IMG/VR virus record: IMGVR_UViG_2563367002_000001
Source: a virus
Taxonomy: Duplodnaviria > Heunggongvirae > Uroviricota > Caudoviricetes
Direction: 5' to 3' (one strand)
Length of the DNA stretch: 38,579 nt
Both the position numbers and the translations under genes were made by a program. Below the pieces are notes generated by a model that was not told where the DNA came from, ran no database searches, and saw only the letters and a program-made list of their open reading frames with translations. Of this stretch, positions 1-10,092 are shown in pieces; within the stretch, counting starts at the first letter, position 1, and each line of letters starts with the position of its first letter.

Positions 1-1143
1 CTATGCTGTTTTGATATCTACGATAATCCAGTCTTTACCACGATCATCATTGTATCGGTCGGTCATTTTTCTGGATTTATGACCTAACAACTTTTGCGTA
101 TCCAGACCCTGTTCCCGATATAACCGTTCTGACAGAGATCGCTGCTCATGAAATGTGGGCGCAGTTCCTGGCTCCCATTTTATGCCACATTTTTCCCTGG
201 CCTTTTTAAAAGCCGTTGTAAGAGTATTTGCAGACACCTGGTCTCCTCTGTTTGCTTGAGAGGTAGTGTGACGGTAATGGACCAGATATTTACTAACAAC
301 AGCATCCCTGCACTGAGATATAACTTCACGAAGGGTAATATTCAGAGCATCGCATTTCAGGTTAAGCGGAATAGCAAGTTTTGAACCGGTTTTTTCCTGA
401 GTAATGTGCAACATGTCGTCCCAGATATCAGAGAATTTCAAATTGCAGATATCGCCTAAACGTTGTCCAGTGACAAGAGCAAGTAGCATCCCGCATTTTA
501 AATAGGGCTGCCGTCTGCTTACGCTGTCAAATATTGCCTGCCATTCGGGCAGTGATAATCTTTGGCGGTTTACTCGATTTCGCGGTTGTTTTGTTGCCTG
601 CGCTGGGTTAAATCCTGGCGGAACATGTCCTGCGTGTTGTGCTTCTTTGAAGACGTCGATCAACACCATTCTCACGACTTGCGCCATCCTGTTATGACCT
701 TCAGCCTTTACAGCATCAATTATTTCGGCAATATCAAGTGCGGTAATATCCTTGAGGTGTTGCATTCCACAATGCTCACGGAAAAGACGAATGGGTTTGC
801 CTTTTTGCCGATAGGAGTTGGGTCTTAGTTCATTATGTTGCAGCCTGTCCTCCTGGATAGAAATATATTTATCAAGCCATTCTGTCACCGTAATGTCTGA
901 GCGCCTGCCTTTCATTCTTTCTAGACGCTCATTGACGCTTAATATTTGTCGGGTACGTTGTTCAGCAATAATGGTATTTGCTTCAGTAGCAACTTGTTTT
1001 GCTTCATTCTCATCAGTTCCTAAGCTATGAAAACGACCGGATAGTGGATGTTTGTATTGCCAATATACCTTTCCGGTTCGCTTATCTAATTTGCAATATA
1101 AATTGGGTATAGAGATTTTGTGAGATCGGGGTCTAGCAGCCAT
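1..1143 (-). CDS. int: Phage tyrosine integrase (site-specific recombinase), 380 aa
   Basis: Full ORF with stop at 1-3. C-terminal HKSRKMTDRY segment fits the tyrosine recombinase catalytic motif. Position at prophage end next to an excisionase-like gene. Lambda-type int/xis overlap. Confidence 0.9.
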   Translation of the reverse strand: MAARPRSHKISIPNLYCKLDKRTGKVYWQYKHPLSGRFHSLGTDENEAKQVATEANTIIAEQRTRQILSVNERLERMKGRRSDITVTEWLDKYISIQEDRLQHNELRPNSYRQKGKPIRLFREHCGMQHLKDITALDIAEIIDAVKAEGHNRMAQVVRMVLIDVFKEAQHAGHVPPGFNPAQATKQPRNRVNRQRLSLPEWQAIFDSVSRRQPYLKCGMLLALVTGQRLGDICNLKFSDIWDDMLHITQEKTGSKLAIPLNLKCDALNITLREVISQCRDAVVSKYLVHYRHTTSQANRGDQVSANTLTTAFKKAREKCGIKWEPGTAPTFHEQRSLSERLYREQGLDTQKLLGHKSRKMTDRYNDDRGKDWIIVDIKTA

Positions 1144-1369
1144 CAGCGATTATCCGTTGGAGTTTTGGGTTTGCGTTTATTGGGAGTTGCGGTTCTGCAA
1201 GCGTTCCTACAAAACGGGAATTTCGGTCAATCATCCAGTAGCGACCAACTTTTATAGCGGGTGGGGCCATCATTTTCCCTTGCGCGTATTTTTTCAGAAC
1301 TCGCTCACTTGGTGCTAAGTCCCCAAATTCTTCTTTAGCCCAGTCCTGTAAAGTGATTAGTCGAGACAT
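1133..1369 (-). CDS. xis: Excisionase-like small DNA-binding protein, 78 aa
   Basis: Small ORF immediately upstream of int and overlapping it by 11 nt. Strong RBS AGGAGG 5 nt before the ATG. Basic, Trp-containing protein typical of prophage excisionases. Confidence 0.75.
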   Translation of the reverse strand: MSRLITLQDWAKEEFGDLAPSERVLKKYAQGKMMAPPAIKVGRYWMIDRNSRFVGTLAEPQLPINANPKLQRIIADGC

Positions 1370-1508
1370 TTGTCCTCCTCTTAGCTGCTGAGGGAGTTTG
1401 TGACCGATATATCTGACATGATATTAAGCTCATGGCAGGTACATCTCTTGACTGGTCATAGAGATAAATTTAATGCTGAGAAATGCAGTATTGAATTTAT
1501 CAATTTTT

Positions 1509-1748
1509 CTATTTCCTGCGTATGGCACGTAACTTCTTAATGTGTTCTGCTGTTTCGATCTCTTCAGCTATCCGATCTGCGTCAGCTTTATTCACAGGTT
1601 CAAAGTCATGATTAAAGCGGAACATGCTGGCGATACATGTTCTGCCTTTTCGGATGTAGTGAACTTTGTTGTGAGTGGAACGCAGGATTTTGCAGGGAGT
1701 GCCGTGGTGGTCGACGTACCAGGTGTTAGGGTAAATCACTCTGAACAT
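1509..1748 (-). CDS. Small hypothetical early-left protein, 79 aa (DUF4222-like by recollection)
   Basis: ORF MFRVIYPNTWYVDHHG... in the same orientation as the int/xis operon. Family assignment is from memory only. Confidence 0.55.
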   Translation of the reverse strand: MFRVIYPNTWYVDHHGTPCKILRSTHNKVHYIRKGRTCIASMFRFNHDFEPVNKADADRIAEEIETAEHIKKLRAIRRK

Positions 1749-1773
1749 TCTTGACCTTGTGTTGTGCGGATTG

Positions 1774-2058
1774 TTATTCAGTGCCGATATTTACCTTTAT
1801 CGCGTATACCTTTACCGGTTTATCACCGAAGTGCGGATGTGTGATTGTCTTCACTTCATATCCGTCATACGGAACATCAACTCTGCGGCTGGAATCGTCG
1901 CGCTTCGGATATCCCTTTGTGATAATCAGGCGGTCATGCTTACGGTTAACGAGGCGCTTTTTCCAGTAGTCATTACACAGGCGATACTCTTCCGTTTTCT
2001 CTCCGCGAATCATGGCATCGAAGTATTCACCTTTAACGGCAAGTTGCAGGTTAGCCAC
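1774..2058 (-). CDS. Hypothetical protein, 94 aa, possible ASCH/PUA-like fold
   Basis: ORF in operon orientation. Proposed GTG start at 2058-2056 is preceded by AAGGAG with a 6-nt spacer; the track's upstream ATG at 2142 lacks an RBS and overlaps the upstream gene. Fold guess is weak (GEKTEEYRL motif). Confidence 0.5.
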   Translation of the reverse strand: MANLQLAVKGEYFDAMIRGEKTEEYRLCNDYWKKRLVNRKHDRLIITKGYPKRDDSSRRVDVPYDGYEVKTITHPHFGDKPVKVYAIKVNIGTE

Positions 2059-2791
2059 GGTTAACTCCTTGCTGTGTGGCGTCGAGTAATAAATCCCACA
2101 ACCGCTGAGAGCAATTTCCGCATGTACAGCGTTGACCCACAACGTTTATCGCGTTGCTGATTTCCGGCGTTACCTGTTTAGGAACCATAACCCAACCATC
2201 CGGAGTTACCGGAAGCGAGAACGGCAGCACATCTCTGTGAACAAGTTTTTGCTGTGACAGGTTATCCAGAACTTTCTGTACTGCTGCATCACCGAATACA
2301 CCAAGCGCATCTGCCATAACTCCTACAACCTGATAAGCCTCAGCGCATACCGTGGATAAACCATCCGGAATTACCGGAGAGTTGCCGGGTTCTTTAATGT
2401 GCAAGCGAGGCTCACCATCTTTTGGCTCAGGCCACTGGCGCTCCATGTTGATCTTCAATTTATCTTCCATAGCAACGGTAATTTCAGCATCGCTGATGCC
2501 AGCACGGCGCTGTGCATCCCACAACAGAAACTGCATATCAGCCCACTCGCTAAGATCGTCTGGTTCGGCTGCGGCTTCCAGTGCCTCTTTTGAGAGGTGT
2601 TTCAGTGGACCAATGGGGCCAACGCAGCCAAATGTGGAGTCAGACCATTTGGCATGCTCGTGGCGAATCTGTTCGCGTTCCAGTGATGCCAGTGCAATTC
2701 GTGCTAGTTCCATTTGTTCGCCACGAGTAAGCCCGTTTTCAAGCGGATTTTTAATGAACAATTCAATACGTTCTTTGGTAATAGTGGTCAT
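2051..2791 (-). CDS. Ead/Ea22-like early accessory protein, 246 aa (possible DUF550 / nucleotide pyrophosphohydrolase-like domain)
   Basis: Long ORF whose ATG overlaps the upstream stop as ATGA (translational coupling). Shares the motif NSPVIPDG with two neighbouring paralogues. Domain assignment is from memory and unverified. Confidence 0.65.
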   Translation of the reverse strand: MTTITKERIELFIKNPLENGLTRGEQMELARIALASLEREQIRHEHAKWSDSTFGCVGPIGPLKHLSKEALEAAAEPDDLSEWADMQFLLWDAQRRAGISDAEITVAMEDKLKINMERQWPEPKDGEPRLHIKEPGNSPVIPDGLSTVCAEAYQVVGVMADALGVFGDAAVQKVLDNLSQQKLVHRDVLPFSLPVTPDGWVMVPKQVTPEISNAINVVGQRCTCGNCSQRLWDLLLDATQQGVNRG

Positions 2792-2997
2792 GTGTTAATC
2801 CTCAAAACTTTATGCCCGGGCGCAAAAGTACGTGTTTTGTCTTTGCTTATTCGCCACCCGTCTTTACGGGCCTCTTTTGCACAACCAGACCATGACGTAC
2901 CGATATACTCACCGAAGTCTGGCACTGGATATACACCTTCCGTACACTGGCGACAATCACAATAGAGATGCATGGTGTAACTTGCGGCAATAGCCAT
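2788..2997 (-). CDS. Small Cys-rich hypothetical protein, 69 aa (MAIAASYTMHLYCDCRQC...)
   Basis: ATG at 2997 lies 1 nt after the upstream stop; its own stop overlaps the next start as ATGA. CxC...C pattern suggests metal binding. Confidence 0.5.
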   Translation of the reverse strand: MAIAASYTMHLYCDCRQCTEGVYPVPDFGEYIGTSWSGCAKEARKDGWRISKDKTRTFAPGHKVLRINT

Positions 2998-2998
2998 A

Positions 2999-3532
2999 TC
3001 ACTCTCTTTTTCCCTGAAGCATGGCAGCGTGGCAGGCATCCTCTACGCCCTTAACTGCATCTGCGCAGTAGTTATAGCGATTGCATTCCACTAACTTCTG
3101 CCTGAGATTTTCAATTGCTTGCGCGACATCAGCCTGTATTACAGGAACTGGCGGAACGGCTGTCTGCTGCTCTCGAACGTCATTAGTCGCTATCGGTTCT
3201 GCTGCCAACTGACTGGCATATTTGTTAATGGTAACGATAAGCTCTTGCTCAGCCTCATCCAGACAATCACCGATACCTCGCCTGTCGCCGTCAAAATCAT
3301 CGAAATCAGCACGAACTCTGGCAAATTTCAGGATTGCGGACAACACCTCACCAGGAATTACCGGAGAGTTGGTTGACGTTTCCGAAATTTCCCGAAAATT
3401 ATTGGTTGACGAATTCGCGTTTTCCCGAAAGTTTCCGGCATGAAGCATAGCCGCGCGGCAGGCGTTCCAGCCTCTCACCTCTGCAATAGCGGCAACAGCA
3501 TCGACCGCGTACATGCTAAGAGGGTTAGGCAT
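2999..3532 (-). CDS. Hypothetical early-left protein, about 177 aa; start uncertain
   Basis: ORF with an NSPVIPGE motif and a low-complexity NFREN/NFREI linker. The track start (TTG at 3607) overlaps the upstream gene with no RBS, so ATG 3532 or 3514 is preferred. Confidence 0.5.
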   Translation of the reverse strand: MPNPLSMYAVDAVAAIAEVRGWNACRAAMLHAGNFRENANSSTNNFREISETSTNSPVIPGEVLSAILKFARVRADFDDFDGDRRGIGDCLDEAEQELIVTINKYASQLAAEPIATNDVREQQTAVPPVPVIQADVAQAIENLRQKLVECNRYNYCADAVKGVEDACHAAMLQGKRE

Positions 3533-3549
3533 TGGTTTTTCTTCAGGTA

Positions 3550-3804
3550 CTACTGGCACTGGCTTGGCATATATAGCGGCTGAACATACCAACCCTTTGA
3601 TAACCAACTGTCAGCAATGTTTTTACTCCTCGTTATTGCCGGAATACCTAAGCCATTGTCTGAATGCAGCCATGCCACCGGATTCTCTTCCAGCGATGCC
3701 AGAGCAATTTCATAAGCCCGGCGCTCAACATTGTCTCGCACATCCAAACTGCTGATACGCTCTTTGATTTCTTTAATCAGTTCTTTGTCGGTAAAAGTGC
3801 TCAT
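3550..3804 (-). CDS. Hypothetical early-left protein, 84 aa (MSTFTDKELIKEIKERISSLD...)
   Basis: ATG at 3804 preceded by GGAG. The track ORF extends to 3870 only because the frame stays open into the IS end; those 17 N-terminal codons are IS-derived. Confidence 0.55.
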   Translation of the reverse strand: MSTFTDKELIKEIKERISSLDVRDNVERRAYEIALASLEENPVAWLHSDNGLGIPAITRSKNIADSWLSKGWYVQPLYMPSQCQ

Positions 3805-3893
3805 ATCAATCTCCATTGGTGTGAAGTGGTTTACTGAATTTGGCCACCTGAACAGAGGTGATATGCTCACCTCAGAACAACACAGGTGCCATA

Positions 3894-5819
<1,926 letters not shown>

Positions 5820-5823
<4 letters not shown>

Positions 5824-6041
5824 TTCGAACCTCTCTGTTTACTGATAAGCTCCAGATCCTCCTGGCAACTTGCACAAGTCCGACAACCCTGAACGACCAG
5901 GCGTCTTCGTTCATCTATGGGATCGCCACACTCACAACAATGAGTGGCGGATATAGTCTGGTAGTTCAGACGACGCATTTTTATTGCTGTATTGCGCTGT
6001 AATTCTTCAATTTCTGATGCTGAATCAATGATGTCCGCCAT
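5820..6041 (-). CDS. TraR/DksA-family C4 zinc-finger protein, 73 aa (lambda orf60a/Orf73-like)
   Basis: CxxC...CxxC motif (CCECGDPIDE...CRTCASCQ). Position between Ea22 and exo as in lambda. Start overlaps the neighbouring gene. Confidence 0.75.
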
Positions 6042-6139
6042 CTTTCATTAATCCCTGAATTGTTGGTTAATACGCTTGAGGGTGAATGCGAATAATAAAA
6101 AAGGAGCCTGTAGCTCCCTGATGATTTTGCTTTTCATGT

Positions 6140-6421
6140 TCACCGTTCCTTAAAGACGCCGTTTAACATGCCGATCGCCAGGCTTAAATGAGTCGGTGTG
6201 AATCCCATCAGCGTTACCGTTTCGCGGTGCTTCTTTAGTACGCTACGGCAAATGTCATCGACGTTTTTATCCGGAAACTGCTGTCTGGCTTTTTTGATTT
6301 CAGAATTAGCCTGACGGGCAATGCTGCGAAGGGCGTTTTCTTGCTGAGGTGTCACTGAACAAGCCCCATGTCGGCAAGCATAAGCACACAGAATATGAAG
6401 CCCGCTGCCAGAAAAATGCAT
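6140..6421 (-). CDS. Lambda orf61-like small protein; start uncertain
   Basis: C-terminal portion VTPQQENALRSIARQANSEIKKARQQFPDKNVDD... resembles a lambda early-left small ORF. The track ORF starts at the most upstream ATG and may be too long. Confidence 0.5.
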   Translation of the reverse strand: MHFSGSGLHILCAYACRHGACSVTPQQENALRSIARQANSEIKKARQQFPDKNVDDICRSVLKKHRETVTLMGFTPTHLSLAIGMLNGVFKER

Positions 6422-6431
6422 TCAGTGGTTG

Positions 6432-6623
6432 TCATACCTGGTCTCTCTCATCTGCTTCTGCTTTCGCCACCATCATTTCCAGCTTTTGTGAAAGGGATGT
6501 GGCTAACGTATGAAATTCTTCGTCTGTTTCTACTGGTATTGGCACAAACCTGACTCCAATTTGAGCAAGGCTATGTGCCATCTCAATACTCGTTCTTAAC
6601 TCAACAGGAGATGCTTTGTGCAT
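6432..6623 (-). CDS. Lambda orf63-like small protein, 63 aa
   Basis: Exact 63-codon ORF in the position of lambda orf63, between exo and orf61. Confidence 0.6.
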   Translation of the reverse strand: MHKASPVELRTSIEMAHSLAQIGVRFVPIPVETDEEFHTLATSLSQKLEMMVAKAEADERDQV

Positions 6624-6774
6624 ACCGCCTCCCGTTTATTATTTATCTTCTCAGCCAGCCGCTGTGCTTTCAGTGGATTTCTGATAACAGAAAGGCCGGG
6701 AAATACCCAGCCTCGCTTTGTAACGGAGTAGACGAAAGTGATCGCGCCTACCCGGATATTATCGTGAGGATGCG

Positions 6775-7455
6775 TCATCGCCATTGCTCCCCAAATACAA
6801 AACTAATTTCAGCCAGTGCCTCGTCCATTTTTTCGATGAACTCCGGCACCATCTCGTCAAAACTCGCCATGTACTTTTCATCCCGCTCAACCACGACATA
6901 ATGCAGTCCTTCACGCTTCATACGCGGGTCATAGTTGGCAAAGTACCAGGCATCTTTTCGCGTCACCCACATGCTGTACTGCACCTGGGCCATGTAAGCC
7001 GATTTTATGGCCTCGAAACCACCGAGCCGGAACTTCATGAAATCCCGGGAGGTAAACGGGCATTTCAGCTCAAGGCCGTTGCCGTCACTGCATAAACCAT
7101 CGGGAGAGCAGGCGGTGCGCATACTTTCGTCGCGATAGATGATCGGGGATTCAGTAACATTCACGCCGGAAGTAAACTCAAACAGGGCTCTGGCGTCGTT
7201 CTCGTACTGTTTTCCCCAAGCCAGCGCCTTAGCGTTAACTTCCGGAGCCACACCGGTGCAAACCTCAGCAAGCAGGGTGTGGAAGTAGGACATTTTCATG
7301 TCAGGCCATTTCTTTCCGGAGCGGGGTTTTGCTATCACGTTGTGAACTTCTGAAGCGGTGATGACGCCGAGCCGTAATTTGTGCCATGCATCATCCCCCT
7401 GTTCGACAGCTCTCACGTCGATCCCGGTACGCTGCAGGATAATGTCCGGTGTCAT
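6775..7455 (-). CDS. exo: Lambda exonuclease (Red-alpha), 226 aa
   Basis: Matches lambda Exo along its length ([42 protein letters not shown]...). Start overlaps the bet stop. Confidence 0.95.
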
Positions 7456-7911
7456 GCTGCCACCTTCTGCTCAGTGGCTTTCTGTTTCAGGAATCCAAGA
7501 GCTTTCACTGCTTCGGCCTGTGTCAGTTCTGACGATGCGCGAATGTCGCGGCGAAATATCTGGGAACAGAGCGGCAATAAGTCGTCATCCCATGTTTTAT
7601 CCAGGGCGATCAGCAGAGTGTTAATCTCCTGCATGGTTTCATCGTTAACCGGAGTGATGTCGCGTTCCGGCTGACGTTCTGCAGTGTATGCGGTATTTTC
7701 GACAATGCGCTCGGCTTCATCCTTGTCATAGATACCAGCAAATCCGAAGGCGAGACGGGCACACTGAATCATGGCTTTATGCCGTAACATCCGTTTGGGA
7801 TGCGACTGCCACGGCCCCGTGATTTCTCTGCCTTCGCGGGTTTTGAATGGTTCGCGGCGGCATTCATCCATCCACTCGGTAACGCAGATCGGATGATTGC
7901 GGTCTTTGCGG
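7452..7911 (-). pseudogene. bet: bet (Red-beta) 3' fragment; 5' part removed at the IS911 junction
   Basis: The frame reads ...RKDRNHPICVTEWMDECRREPFKTREGREITGPWQSHPKRMLRHKAMIQCARLAFGFAGIYDKDEAERI..., the C-terminal half of lambda Bet. It runs without a start codon straight into the IS end at 7911/7912. Confidence 0.9.
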
Positions 7912-7941
7912 TGAAGTGGTCAACAAAAACTGGCCACCGAG

Positions 7942-9089
<1,148 letters not shown>

Positions 9090-9161
9090 TATGGCACCTG
9101 TGTTGTTCTGAGGTGAGCATATCACCTCTGTTCAGGTGGCCAAATTCAGTAAACCACTTCA

Positions 9162-9568
9162 CACATCAGCAAAACGCTATTCACGCAGTACAGCAAATCC
9201 TTCCAGACCCAACCAAACCAATCGTAGTAACCATTCAGGAACGCAACCGCAGCTTAGACCAAAACAGGAAGCTATGGGCCTGCTTAGGTGACGTCTCTCG
9301 TCAGGTTGAATGGCATGGTCGCTGGCTGGATGCAGAAAGCTGGAAGTGTGTGTTTACCGCAGCATTAAAGCAGCAGGATGTTGTTCCTAACCTTGCCGGG
9401 AATGGCTTTGTGGTAATAGGCCAGTCAACCAGCAGGATGCGTGTAAGCGAATTTGCGGAGCTATTAGAGCTTATACAGGCATTCGGTACAGAGCGTGGCG
9501 TTAAGTGGTCAGACGAAGCGCGACTGGCTCTCGAATGGAAAGCGCGATGGGGAGATCGGGCTGCATGA
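9162..9568 (+). pseudogene. ninB: ninB (NinB/Orf-family recombination protein) lacking its first ~12 codons; fused in frame to IS-derived codons
   Basis: From the IS junction the frame reads HQQNAIHAVQQILPDPTKPIVVTIQERNRSLDQNRKLWACLGDV... to the native stop, matching lambda NinB as recalled. The native N-terminus is missing. Confidence 0.85.
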
Positions 9569-10092
9569 CTATCAAATCAAATACGCCAGCACACGACAAG
9601 GACTGCTGGCAAACGCCGCTTTGGCTTTTTGATGCACTGGATATTGAGTTTGGATTCTGGCTGGATTCGGCAGCGAGCGACAAAAATGCTCTGTGCGCTC
9701 ACTGGCTAACTGAGGACGACGACGCGCTCAATTCTGAGTGGGTAAGCCACGGTGCAATCTGGAATAACCCACCGTACAGCAATATCAGGCCGTGGGTGGA
9801 AAAAGCCGCTGAGCAGTGTATACAACAGCGACAGACGGTAGTGATGCTTGTGCCAGAGGATATGTCTGTCGGATGGTTCAGCAAGGCTCTGGAGAGTGTT
9901 GACGAAGTTCGTATTATCACTGATGGACGGATTAATTTTATCGAACCATCGACAGGGCTGGAGAAGAAGGGAAACAGCAAAGGCTCCATGCTGCTGATTT
10001 GGCGACCGTTCATCAGTCCTCGACGGATGTTTACTACCGTATCCAAAGCGGCATTGATGGCGATCGGGCAGGGCGTCAGGAGGGCTGCATGA
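9565..10092 (+). CDS. Phage N6-adenine DNA methyltransferase (Dam-like), about 175 aa
   Basis: NPPY catalytic motif ([10 protein letters not shown]). ATG overlaps the ninB stop as ATGA. Typical nin-region position. Confidence 0.8.

Follow-up and report, generated by a model that had tools for sequence, protein, structure and literature searches.

What occupies the ea8.5 slot of the lambdoid early-left operon in the virus record IMGVR_UViG_2563367002_000001, and do the genes found there form a system of their own? The window, a stretch of 38,579 nucleotides from a member of the Caudoviricetes, carries in this position, between xis and an Ea22-like gene, a block of six small minus-strand open reading frames (ORFs; g1 to g6), which a first-pass annotation had proposed as a coherent takeover or anti-defence unit. 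The results indicate that the block is very probably a non-essential, mosaic “ea-type” accessory segment of the early-left operon, rather than a dedicated multi-gene system; the region is already known as a catalogued, highly mosaic accessory segment, and sequence comparison indicates that in this prophage it derives from five ancestral genes, a frameshift having divided one of them in two. The block and its borders are as follows.

1133–1369, minus strand: xis, excisionase (PF07825).
1509–1748, minus strand: g1, 79 amino acids (aa), phrog_285 (3e-36).
1774–2058, minus strand: g2, 94 aa, phrog_625.
2051–2791, minus strand: g3, 246 aa, phrog_28084/60.
2788–2997, minus strand: g4, 69 aa, phrog_926.
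2999–3532, minus strand: g5, 177 aa, phrog_14306 (3.3e-110).
3550–3804, minus strand: g6, 84 aa, phrog_5117 (1e-21).
5038–5823, minus strand: Ea22-like gene (PF13935, 4.1e-40).

All six ORFs, whose coordinates are exactly those first proposed, have a PHROG family match, with E-values ranging from 1e-21 to 3e-110. Substitutions fall mostly at the third positions of the minus-strand frames, which argues that the ORFs are genes and not chance: compared with homologues, g2 has 58 differences at the third codon position and 22 and 15 at the others, g6 has 17 at the third position and 3 and 5 at the others, and g1 differs from its counterpart in the sister phage ev207 by 1/1/6 according to codon position. 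A plus-strand ORF antisense to g2 (1759–2064, 101 aa), which matches phrog_20945 (4.6e-55), was ruled a shadow ORF by the substitution pattern; amino-acid identity between homologues is 33% in this antisense ORF versus 71% in the ASCH frame of g2. The family phrog_20945 itself appears to have been assembled from gene calls on the wrong strand.

Tight coupling, which had been attributed to the whole block, is found at three junctions only. The described ATGA overlap and 1-nt gap are present at g4/g3 and at g5/g4 (TGAtATG), respectively, whereas g3 and g2 share an 8-nt overlap, GTGGCTAA, in which the GTG start of g2 is preceded by GGAG; g6 and g5 are separated by 17 nt, g2 and g1 by 25 nt, and g1 is followed by a spacer of 139 nt before xis. 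The assignment to the ea8.5 slot between xis and Ea22 stands, but the block does not abut directly on the Ea22-like gene, since an insertion sequence (IS) at 3822–5071 intervenes. No match to any of the six genes was found in NCBIfam, and sequence searches of the PDB with g1, g2, g3, g5 and g6 returned none; Rfam gave no RNA family over 1–8000 and Tandem Repeats Finder detected nothing over 1400–3900.

The composition of the genes points to a mosaic segment, as they are built from interchangeable modules joined via the short conserved linkers ALASLE, NSPVIPDG, VTPDGW and PVPVVPEE. Module swaps are seen directly in the relatives P0002, P0003, P0005, P0006, P0010, P0025 and P0093; P0006, for instance, combines a g6-type leader and the g5 N-module with a DUF550 domain and the g3 tail, while close relatives of g3 are 98–99% identical over residues 1–202 and then continue into a DUF551 end, and others exchange the leader. 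The linker DNA AACTCTCCGGTAATTCCGG, encoding NSPVIPG/D, is present in both g3 and g5, with 0 matches expected by chance, and the DNA of the PVPVVPE linker occurs again in the Ea22-like gene. Both g5 and g6 display the leader and linker modules typical of proteins labelled Ea22, EaA or DUF551, and are best regarded as putative Ea22/EaA-type modular proteins; the same leader and linker modules are found in the mosaic Ea22 variants of Stx phages, and mosaicism of the genes of the ea22 region was previously described (PMC10834534). In lambda, the exo-xis region (ea8.5, ea22, orf73, orf61, orf63, orf60a) corresponds to the same slot and operon; lambda Ea8.5 and orf55 are without homologue among g1–g6.

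The distribution of the block was also determined. Positions 1400–3820 have exact counterparts (100% identity) in 88 complete E. coli genomes, CFT073, ABU 83972 and ATCC 25922 among them, as well as in two isolated phages, ev017 (Jouyvirus, NC_049948) and PhiR57_1; parts of the cluster were detected in 4252 of 5426 E. coli genomes and in 431 phage records. RefSeq already labels the products as DUF4222, ASCH, DUF550 or dATP/dGTP pyrophosphohydrolase, and hypothetical proteins. It had been asked at first whether all six genes would fall into characterised families with mundane roles: the families are indeed catalogued, though most of them have no tested function.

The two upstream ORFs, g6 and g5, are on the evidence of alignments the halves of a single ancestral Ea22/EaA-type gene, split by a 1-nt deletion at a site that had been overlooked.

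3541–3575, minus strand: frameshift site and mosaic joint, inside the PLY-AKPVPVVPEE linker.

In the DNA alignment with PhiR47_1 and cdtI, the window is 1 base short in CTATATAT[A/G]GCC, at about 3569; a virtual g6-g5 fusion aligned in one piece in 51 phage records, while two pieces are needed in the window, and intact relatives read ...GWYVQPLY(I/M)AKPVPVVP... across the junction. The intact homologue of PhiR47_1, named “Ea22”, is 269 aa long, in ASO78B, Ss-VASD and P7 the g5-equivalent sequence lies within a single protein, either in its middle or at its C-terminus, and PGAP annotates 3353–3804 as a frameshifted pseudogene. The missing base is located about 15 nt upstream of the mosaic joint, at which the window is PhiR47_1-like through GCCAAGCCAGTGCC and then ASO78B/Ss-VASD-like from AGTAGTACC. 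As it stands, g6 comprises a leader and a small domain, with the final 5 residues out of frame after the deletion, and g5 could be produced solely via re-initiation at ATG 3532, a possible restart 17 nt past the g6 stop. Programmed frameshifting was rejected because CUAUAUAUGCC is not a slippery heptamer of the X XXY YYZ type and the intact homologues are simply one base longer; a 2-nt AT insertion was also ruled out as the cause, its pattern being absent from IMG/VR, where no unframeshifted form of the exact window junction was found. Within g5, a 33-nt tandem duplication (3369–3433, 78% identity) encodes the low-complexity repeat NFRE(N/I)xxSSTN. Matches to the Pfam family Ead_Ea22 (PF13935) were absent for g3, g5 and g6 at E≤0.1, whereas the neighbour at 5038–5823 is clearly recognized by it.

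The frameshift and the PGAP pseudogene calls could be taken to mean that the block is decaying, functionless DNA, a pseudogenised remnant hitch-hiking in a defective prophage; the window has two IS copies and has lost the stretch where lambdoid phages keep pL, N, cI, O and P, and in CFT073 the same prophage has additional IS insertions, in xis and in ea22, all of which is in keeping with such decay. However, every reading frame is intact except for the single frameshift, and homologues are biased to third-position substitutions. Moreover, the viable isolated phages ev017 and PhiR57_1 have exactly the same sequence (100% identity); therefore, the frameshift is older than the decay and the genes are not degraded, and we consider it quite unlikely that the block is a remnant of this kind. 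Gene order and frameshift are as in the window both in these two phages and in the icd-integrated prophage of CFT073, ABU 83972 and ATCC 25922, and icd adjoins the prophage in the matching genomes. The CFT073 prophage carries IS3 in xis and ISEc10 in ea22, and not the IS911/ISEc52-like copies of the window; ev017 is uninterrupted by IS, whereas the window has one at 3822 and a second copy associated with a bet-to-ninB deletion.

The earlier statement that no ORF is assignable to a function proved too strong for g3, residues 42–137 of which match PF04447 with 141.8 bits (E 8.2e-42, profile positions 1–96 of 97), above the Pfam gathering threshold of 23 bits. PF04447 is DUF550, renamed dATP/dGTP pyrophosphohydrolase. 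The protein is composed of a leader (1–41), the DUF550/MazZ-like domain (42–137), the NSPVIPDG linker, a module at 146–195, the VTPDGW linker and a tail (203–246); thus, the pyrophosphohydrolase-type region suspected at first is well supported by the strong DUF550/MazZ match, while the proposed Ead-like character is confined to the shared leader and linker modules, PF13935 being unmatched. The acidic metal-binding motif ExxE...ExxD is present, with E69, E72, E82 and D85 invariant across diverse DUF550 proteins, and K68, E69, E72, D79, E82, D85, R96, K111, N115, R118 and W120 are kept in comparison with the DUF550 members of Mycobacterium, Rhodococcus and Klebsiella phages. The DUF550 profile also matches the structure of MazZ from cyanophage S-2L (7ODY, 6.7e-5), and the acidic residues of g3 align to equivalent helices of this structure. 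The DUF550 domain of g3 is probably catalytically competent: by analogy with family members, which PMC12884076 (citing Zhou et al. 2021) reports to convert dATP/dGTP to monophosphates and pyrophosphate (PPi), g3 would be a MazG/MazZ-type all-alpha pyrophosphohydrolase, cleaving dATP/dGTP (or a related nucleoside triphosphate) to the monophosphate and PPi, and it may alter or clean the nucleotide pool early in infection.

A DUF550 domain was detected in 512 phage records, among them those of P22-like EaA proteins, of lytic Klebsiella Webervirus and of mycobacteriophages; across these very different phage types it is mostly fused to other modules. The domain of P22-like EaA proteins of Salmonella is 80–83% identical to that of g3, and a DUF550-type domain is shared with MazZ and with the DUF5664-DUF550 protein of Acinetobacter phage SH-Ab 15497. 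Unlike MazZ, g3 has an Ea22-type leader in front of the domain and two unrelated modules C-terminal to it, and, unlike g3, most of its close relatives end in DUF551. The standard lambdoid gene set of the window gives no sign of a Z-genome context (PurZ, DatZ), although no scan was aimed at those genes. PGAP cuts the 246-aa g3 into a shorter “DUF550 domain-containing protein” and a pseudogene fragment, in the window (2051–2791) as well as in two related loci (L001 4652–5392; L002 4152–4892), likely because the exchangeable N-terminal leader matches other proteins; the full-length ORF, ATGA-coupled to g4, is the simpler gene model.

The g2 gene contains no ATG, and its start is GTG 2058 behind the GGAG Shine-Dalgarno sequence. 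Its product scores 15.5 bits with Pfam ASCH (PF04266), below the gathering threshold of 21.2, and 16 of the 28 g2 homologues have sub-threshold PF04266 matches only; also, a profile sequence search of the PDB retrieved no ASCH match. Since sequence searches were empty, structure comparison was required. The AlphaFold model, built from the 28 homologues (pLDDT 83.6), exhibited a PUA-like beta-barrel fold, nearest to solved ASCH structures, and all 28 sequences have invariant G19, K21, E24 and R26, which constitute GxKxxExR, the motif by which Iyer and colleagues reportedly defined ASCH in 2006. The initial suggestion of an ASCH/PUA-fold protein is thus borne out at the fold level, by the model together with the invariant motif, although it stays sub-threshold in Pfam. 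The proteins used for comparison were PH0355 (2z0t), an EF protein (3iuw), the E. coli ac4C amidohydrolase YqfB and a Zymomonas ASCH protein (5guq); g2 is a minimal 94-aa version with 13–23% sequence identity to the solved ASCH proteins, at which activity is not transferable. On the basis of the modelled fold, g2 is proposed as an ASCH beta-barrel that may bind a nucleic acid or a nucleoside ligand.

The 69-aa product of g4 has no match in Pfam, NCBIfam or the PDB; a profile search of 1.84 billion representatives retrieved 328 relatives, nearly all of 60–90 aa, which share YCDCxxC...A(R/K)xxGW...Cx(A/C)Px(H/C). This conserved C-C-C...H pattern confirms the Cys-rich character already noticed and suggests a small zinc-binding protein; g4 is probably a member of an uncharacterised phage family of this type. 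It shows no sequence or profile similarity to lambda Ea8.5, which is a homeodomain/zinc-finger hybrid. The DUF4222-like nature of g1 was likewise confirmed by a match to PF13973 (67.7 bits, 6.4e-19; gathering threshold 27 bits). The DUF4222 family includes RgdR (PMC3378721), which is encoded by a prophage, regulates motility and type III secretion and binds DNA non-specifically; its RGD motif is required for the effect on type III secretion. With the RgdR orthologue C1493 of CFT073, g1 has 25% identity over 68 aa (E 1e-5), which identifies it as an apparent distant relative; Pfam family, small size and prophage location are common to g1 and RgdR (ECs1581/C1493), but g1 is 79 aa long instead of 99, its P7-N8-T9 aligns to R20-G21-D22 of C1493, so that PNT replaces the RGD motif, and its element is lambdoid while that of RgdR is P4-like. 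From family membership, g1 may be a small basic protein that, like RgdR, binds DNA and modulates host transcription.

Is there a meaningful pair formed by an RNA-binding fold and a nucleotide hydrolase, as had been put forward for g2 and g3? Adjacency of ASCH and hydrolase is not conserved: in ev207 the DUF4222 and ASCH genes are followed directly by orf73, with no DUF550 gene, in an Erwinia prophage the ASCH gene belongs to the nin region and follows P, and a Citrobacter prophage has it near xis/int, without DUF550. Relatives of g4 are located in the nin regions of Kosakonia and Pantoea prophages without ASCH. The podovirus phiV10 (L014 332–1513) contains a g4 homologue, a 233-aa gene (gene X) and an ASCH gene, with junctions that include an 8-nt overlap as in the window; gene X has the same leader and tail linkers as g3, but its core is different and is not DUF550. 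These comparisons of gene order speak against a functional pairing; linkage is hinted at by the phiV10 block alone.

One could envisage the whole cluster, or its g4-g3-g2 core, as a coherent module for anti-defence or superinfection exclusion, with g3 breaking down a deoxynucleoside triphosphate or a nucleotide used in immune signalling, and with a modified nucleoside or nucleic acid as the target read by the ASCH protein. The early-left accessory slot, the tight g5/g4/g3/g2 junctions, the g4-X-ASCH order with its 8-nt overlap kept in phiV10, the intact catalytic motif of g3 and the ability of ASCH relatives (EVE, YTH, PUA) to read modified bases are consistent with such a module. It is nevertheless improbable, as PADLOC-DB has no component model matched by g1–g6 at E≤0.1, the central gene of phiV10 has a non-DUF550 core, ASCH occurs without DUF550 in the ev207, Erwinia and Citrobacter prophages, nin region included, the g4 relatives of the nin regions lack ASCH, and DUF550 itself, in its 512 highly varied phage records, is mostly fused to other modules; with no PADLOC match and with varying neighbours, the takeover or anti-defence unit first proposed is unsupported. 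A narrower version, which we hold to be highly improbable, is that g4-X-ASCH, kept with identical overlap junctions in a lambdoid siphovirus and in the epsilon15-like phiV10, is a cassette: the gene of an exchangeable effector would lie between those of a zinc-binding adaptor and an ASCH reader. If this were true, the effector here would be a dATP/dGTP pyrophosphohydrolase, phiV10 would have a different core in its place, and the linkers would be recombination joints for exchanging effectors against host defences.

The mosaic accessory segment described above has, in this prophage, been separated from its usual transcription. The relevant features, with others of the window, are listed below.

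1–1143, minus strand: integrase, lambdoid.
3822–5071, plus strand: IS911/ISEc52-like IS3-family element, copy 1, 1250 bp (ISEc52 family according to PGAP).
7912–9164, minus strand: IS copy 2, a 99% inverted repeat of copy 1.
9505–10092, plus strand: Dam-type N6-adenine methyltransferase, moron-type, in the nin region.
11973–13115, minus strand: Porin_1 Gram-negative porin, moron-type (2e-151), between Q and the lysis genes.
14846–15187, minus strand: Bor, moron-type.

Copy 1 separates g6 from the Ea22-like gene and lies 17 nt upstream of the ATG of g6; its ends read TGAAGTGG...CCACTTCA, its flanks are GTG/GTA, and the uninterrupted site is visible in ev017. In the Ea22-like gene the last 3 codons are replaced by 10 IS-encoded codons, whereas the ev017 orthologue ends ...NIDTNGD*. 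The two copies bracket ea22-orf73-orf61-orf63-orf60a-exo-bet′, and copy 2 joins a truncated bet to a truncated ninB, with nothing else between them: the bet ORF (7452–7871) is the C-terminal third of the gene, covering RecT profile positions 145–195 only, and ninB is without its first codons, its match beginning at NinB profile position 11. Lambdoid phages with the standard gene order have gam, kil, cIII, N, cI, cro, cII, O and P between bet and ninB, and pL as well. Therefore, the immunity, N and replication genes and pL are gone here, and the prophage is defective through an IS-mediated deletion. A promoter scan found no more sigma-70-like sites inside the cluster than in shuffled sequence, and, since pL is lost and no internal promoter rises above chance, the cluster in this genome is probably silent or weakly read through. 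The first reading of the locus had noticed neither the frameshift nor the inserted IS, nor that the immunity and replication region is lost; together these leave the cluster without pL. In the parent phage, of the ev017 type, transcription starting at pL and antiterminated by N would be expected to run through exo-orf60a-orf63-orf61-orf73-ea22 and on into the block, whose genes would be delayed-early and translated partly by coupling.

Other observations concern the same operon. On the minus strand at 6101–6119, between the orf61-like gene (6140–6421) and orf73 (5820–6041), there is a GC-rich hairpin followed by TTTTATTATT, which looks like an intrinsic terminator of the early-left operon, to be overridden by N antitermination. 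The g1-xis spacer, which falls inside a 94–95% identical match to phage 21 and ev207, contains at 1463–1501 an AT-rich inverted repeat with a 16-bp stem (GATAAATTTAATGC...GCAGTATTGAATTTATC) and then, on the plus strand, a run of T residues; the repeat may serve to terminate antisense transcription or act as a binding site. Strain C 691-04A has a related, larger deletion, in which a single IS joins g6 to ninB.

Some points weigh against the interpretation of the block as a non-essential mosaic segment. The viable phage ev017 carries the frameshifted g6/g5, and the two halves may have gained separate roles; the g4-X-ASCH arrangement, with identical overlap junctions in the unrelated phiV10, could reflect functional linkage and not mere co-transfer; four of the five genes belong to families without an experimentally defined activity in a lambdoid phage, the functions given here being read from sequence; and expression from pL is extrapolated from lambda, while weak promoters below the threshold of the scan may exist.

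The significance of these results is mainly in annotation: the block consists of five genes, with the GTG start of g2 established and the PGAP split of g3 corrected, and fold-level support was gained for the ASCH call. For the roles of the EaA/DUF550, ASCH, DUF4222 and small zinc-protein families in temperate coliphages, ev017 is a better system than this defective prophage.

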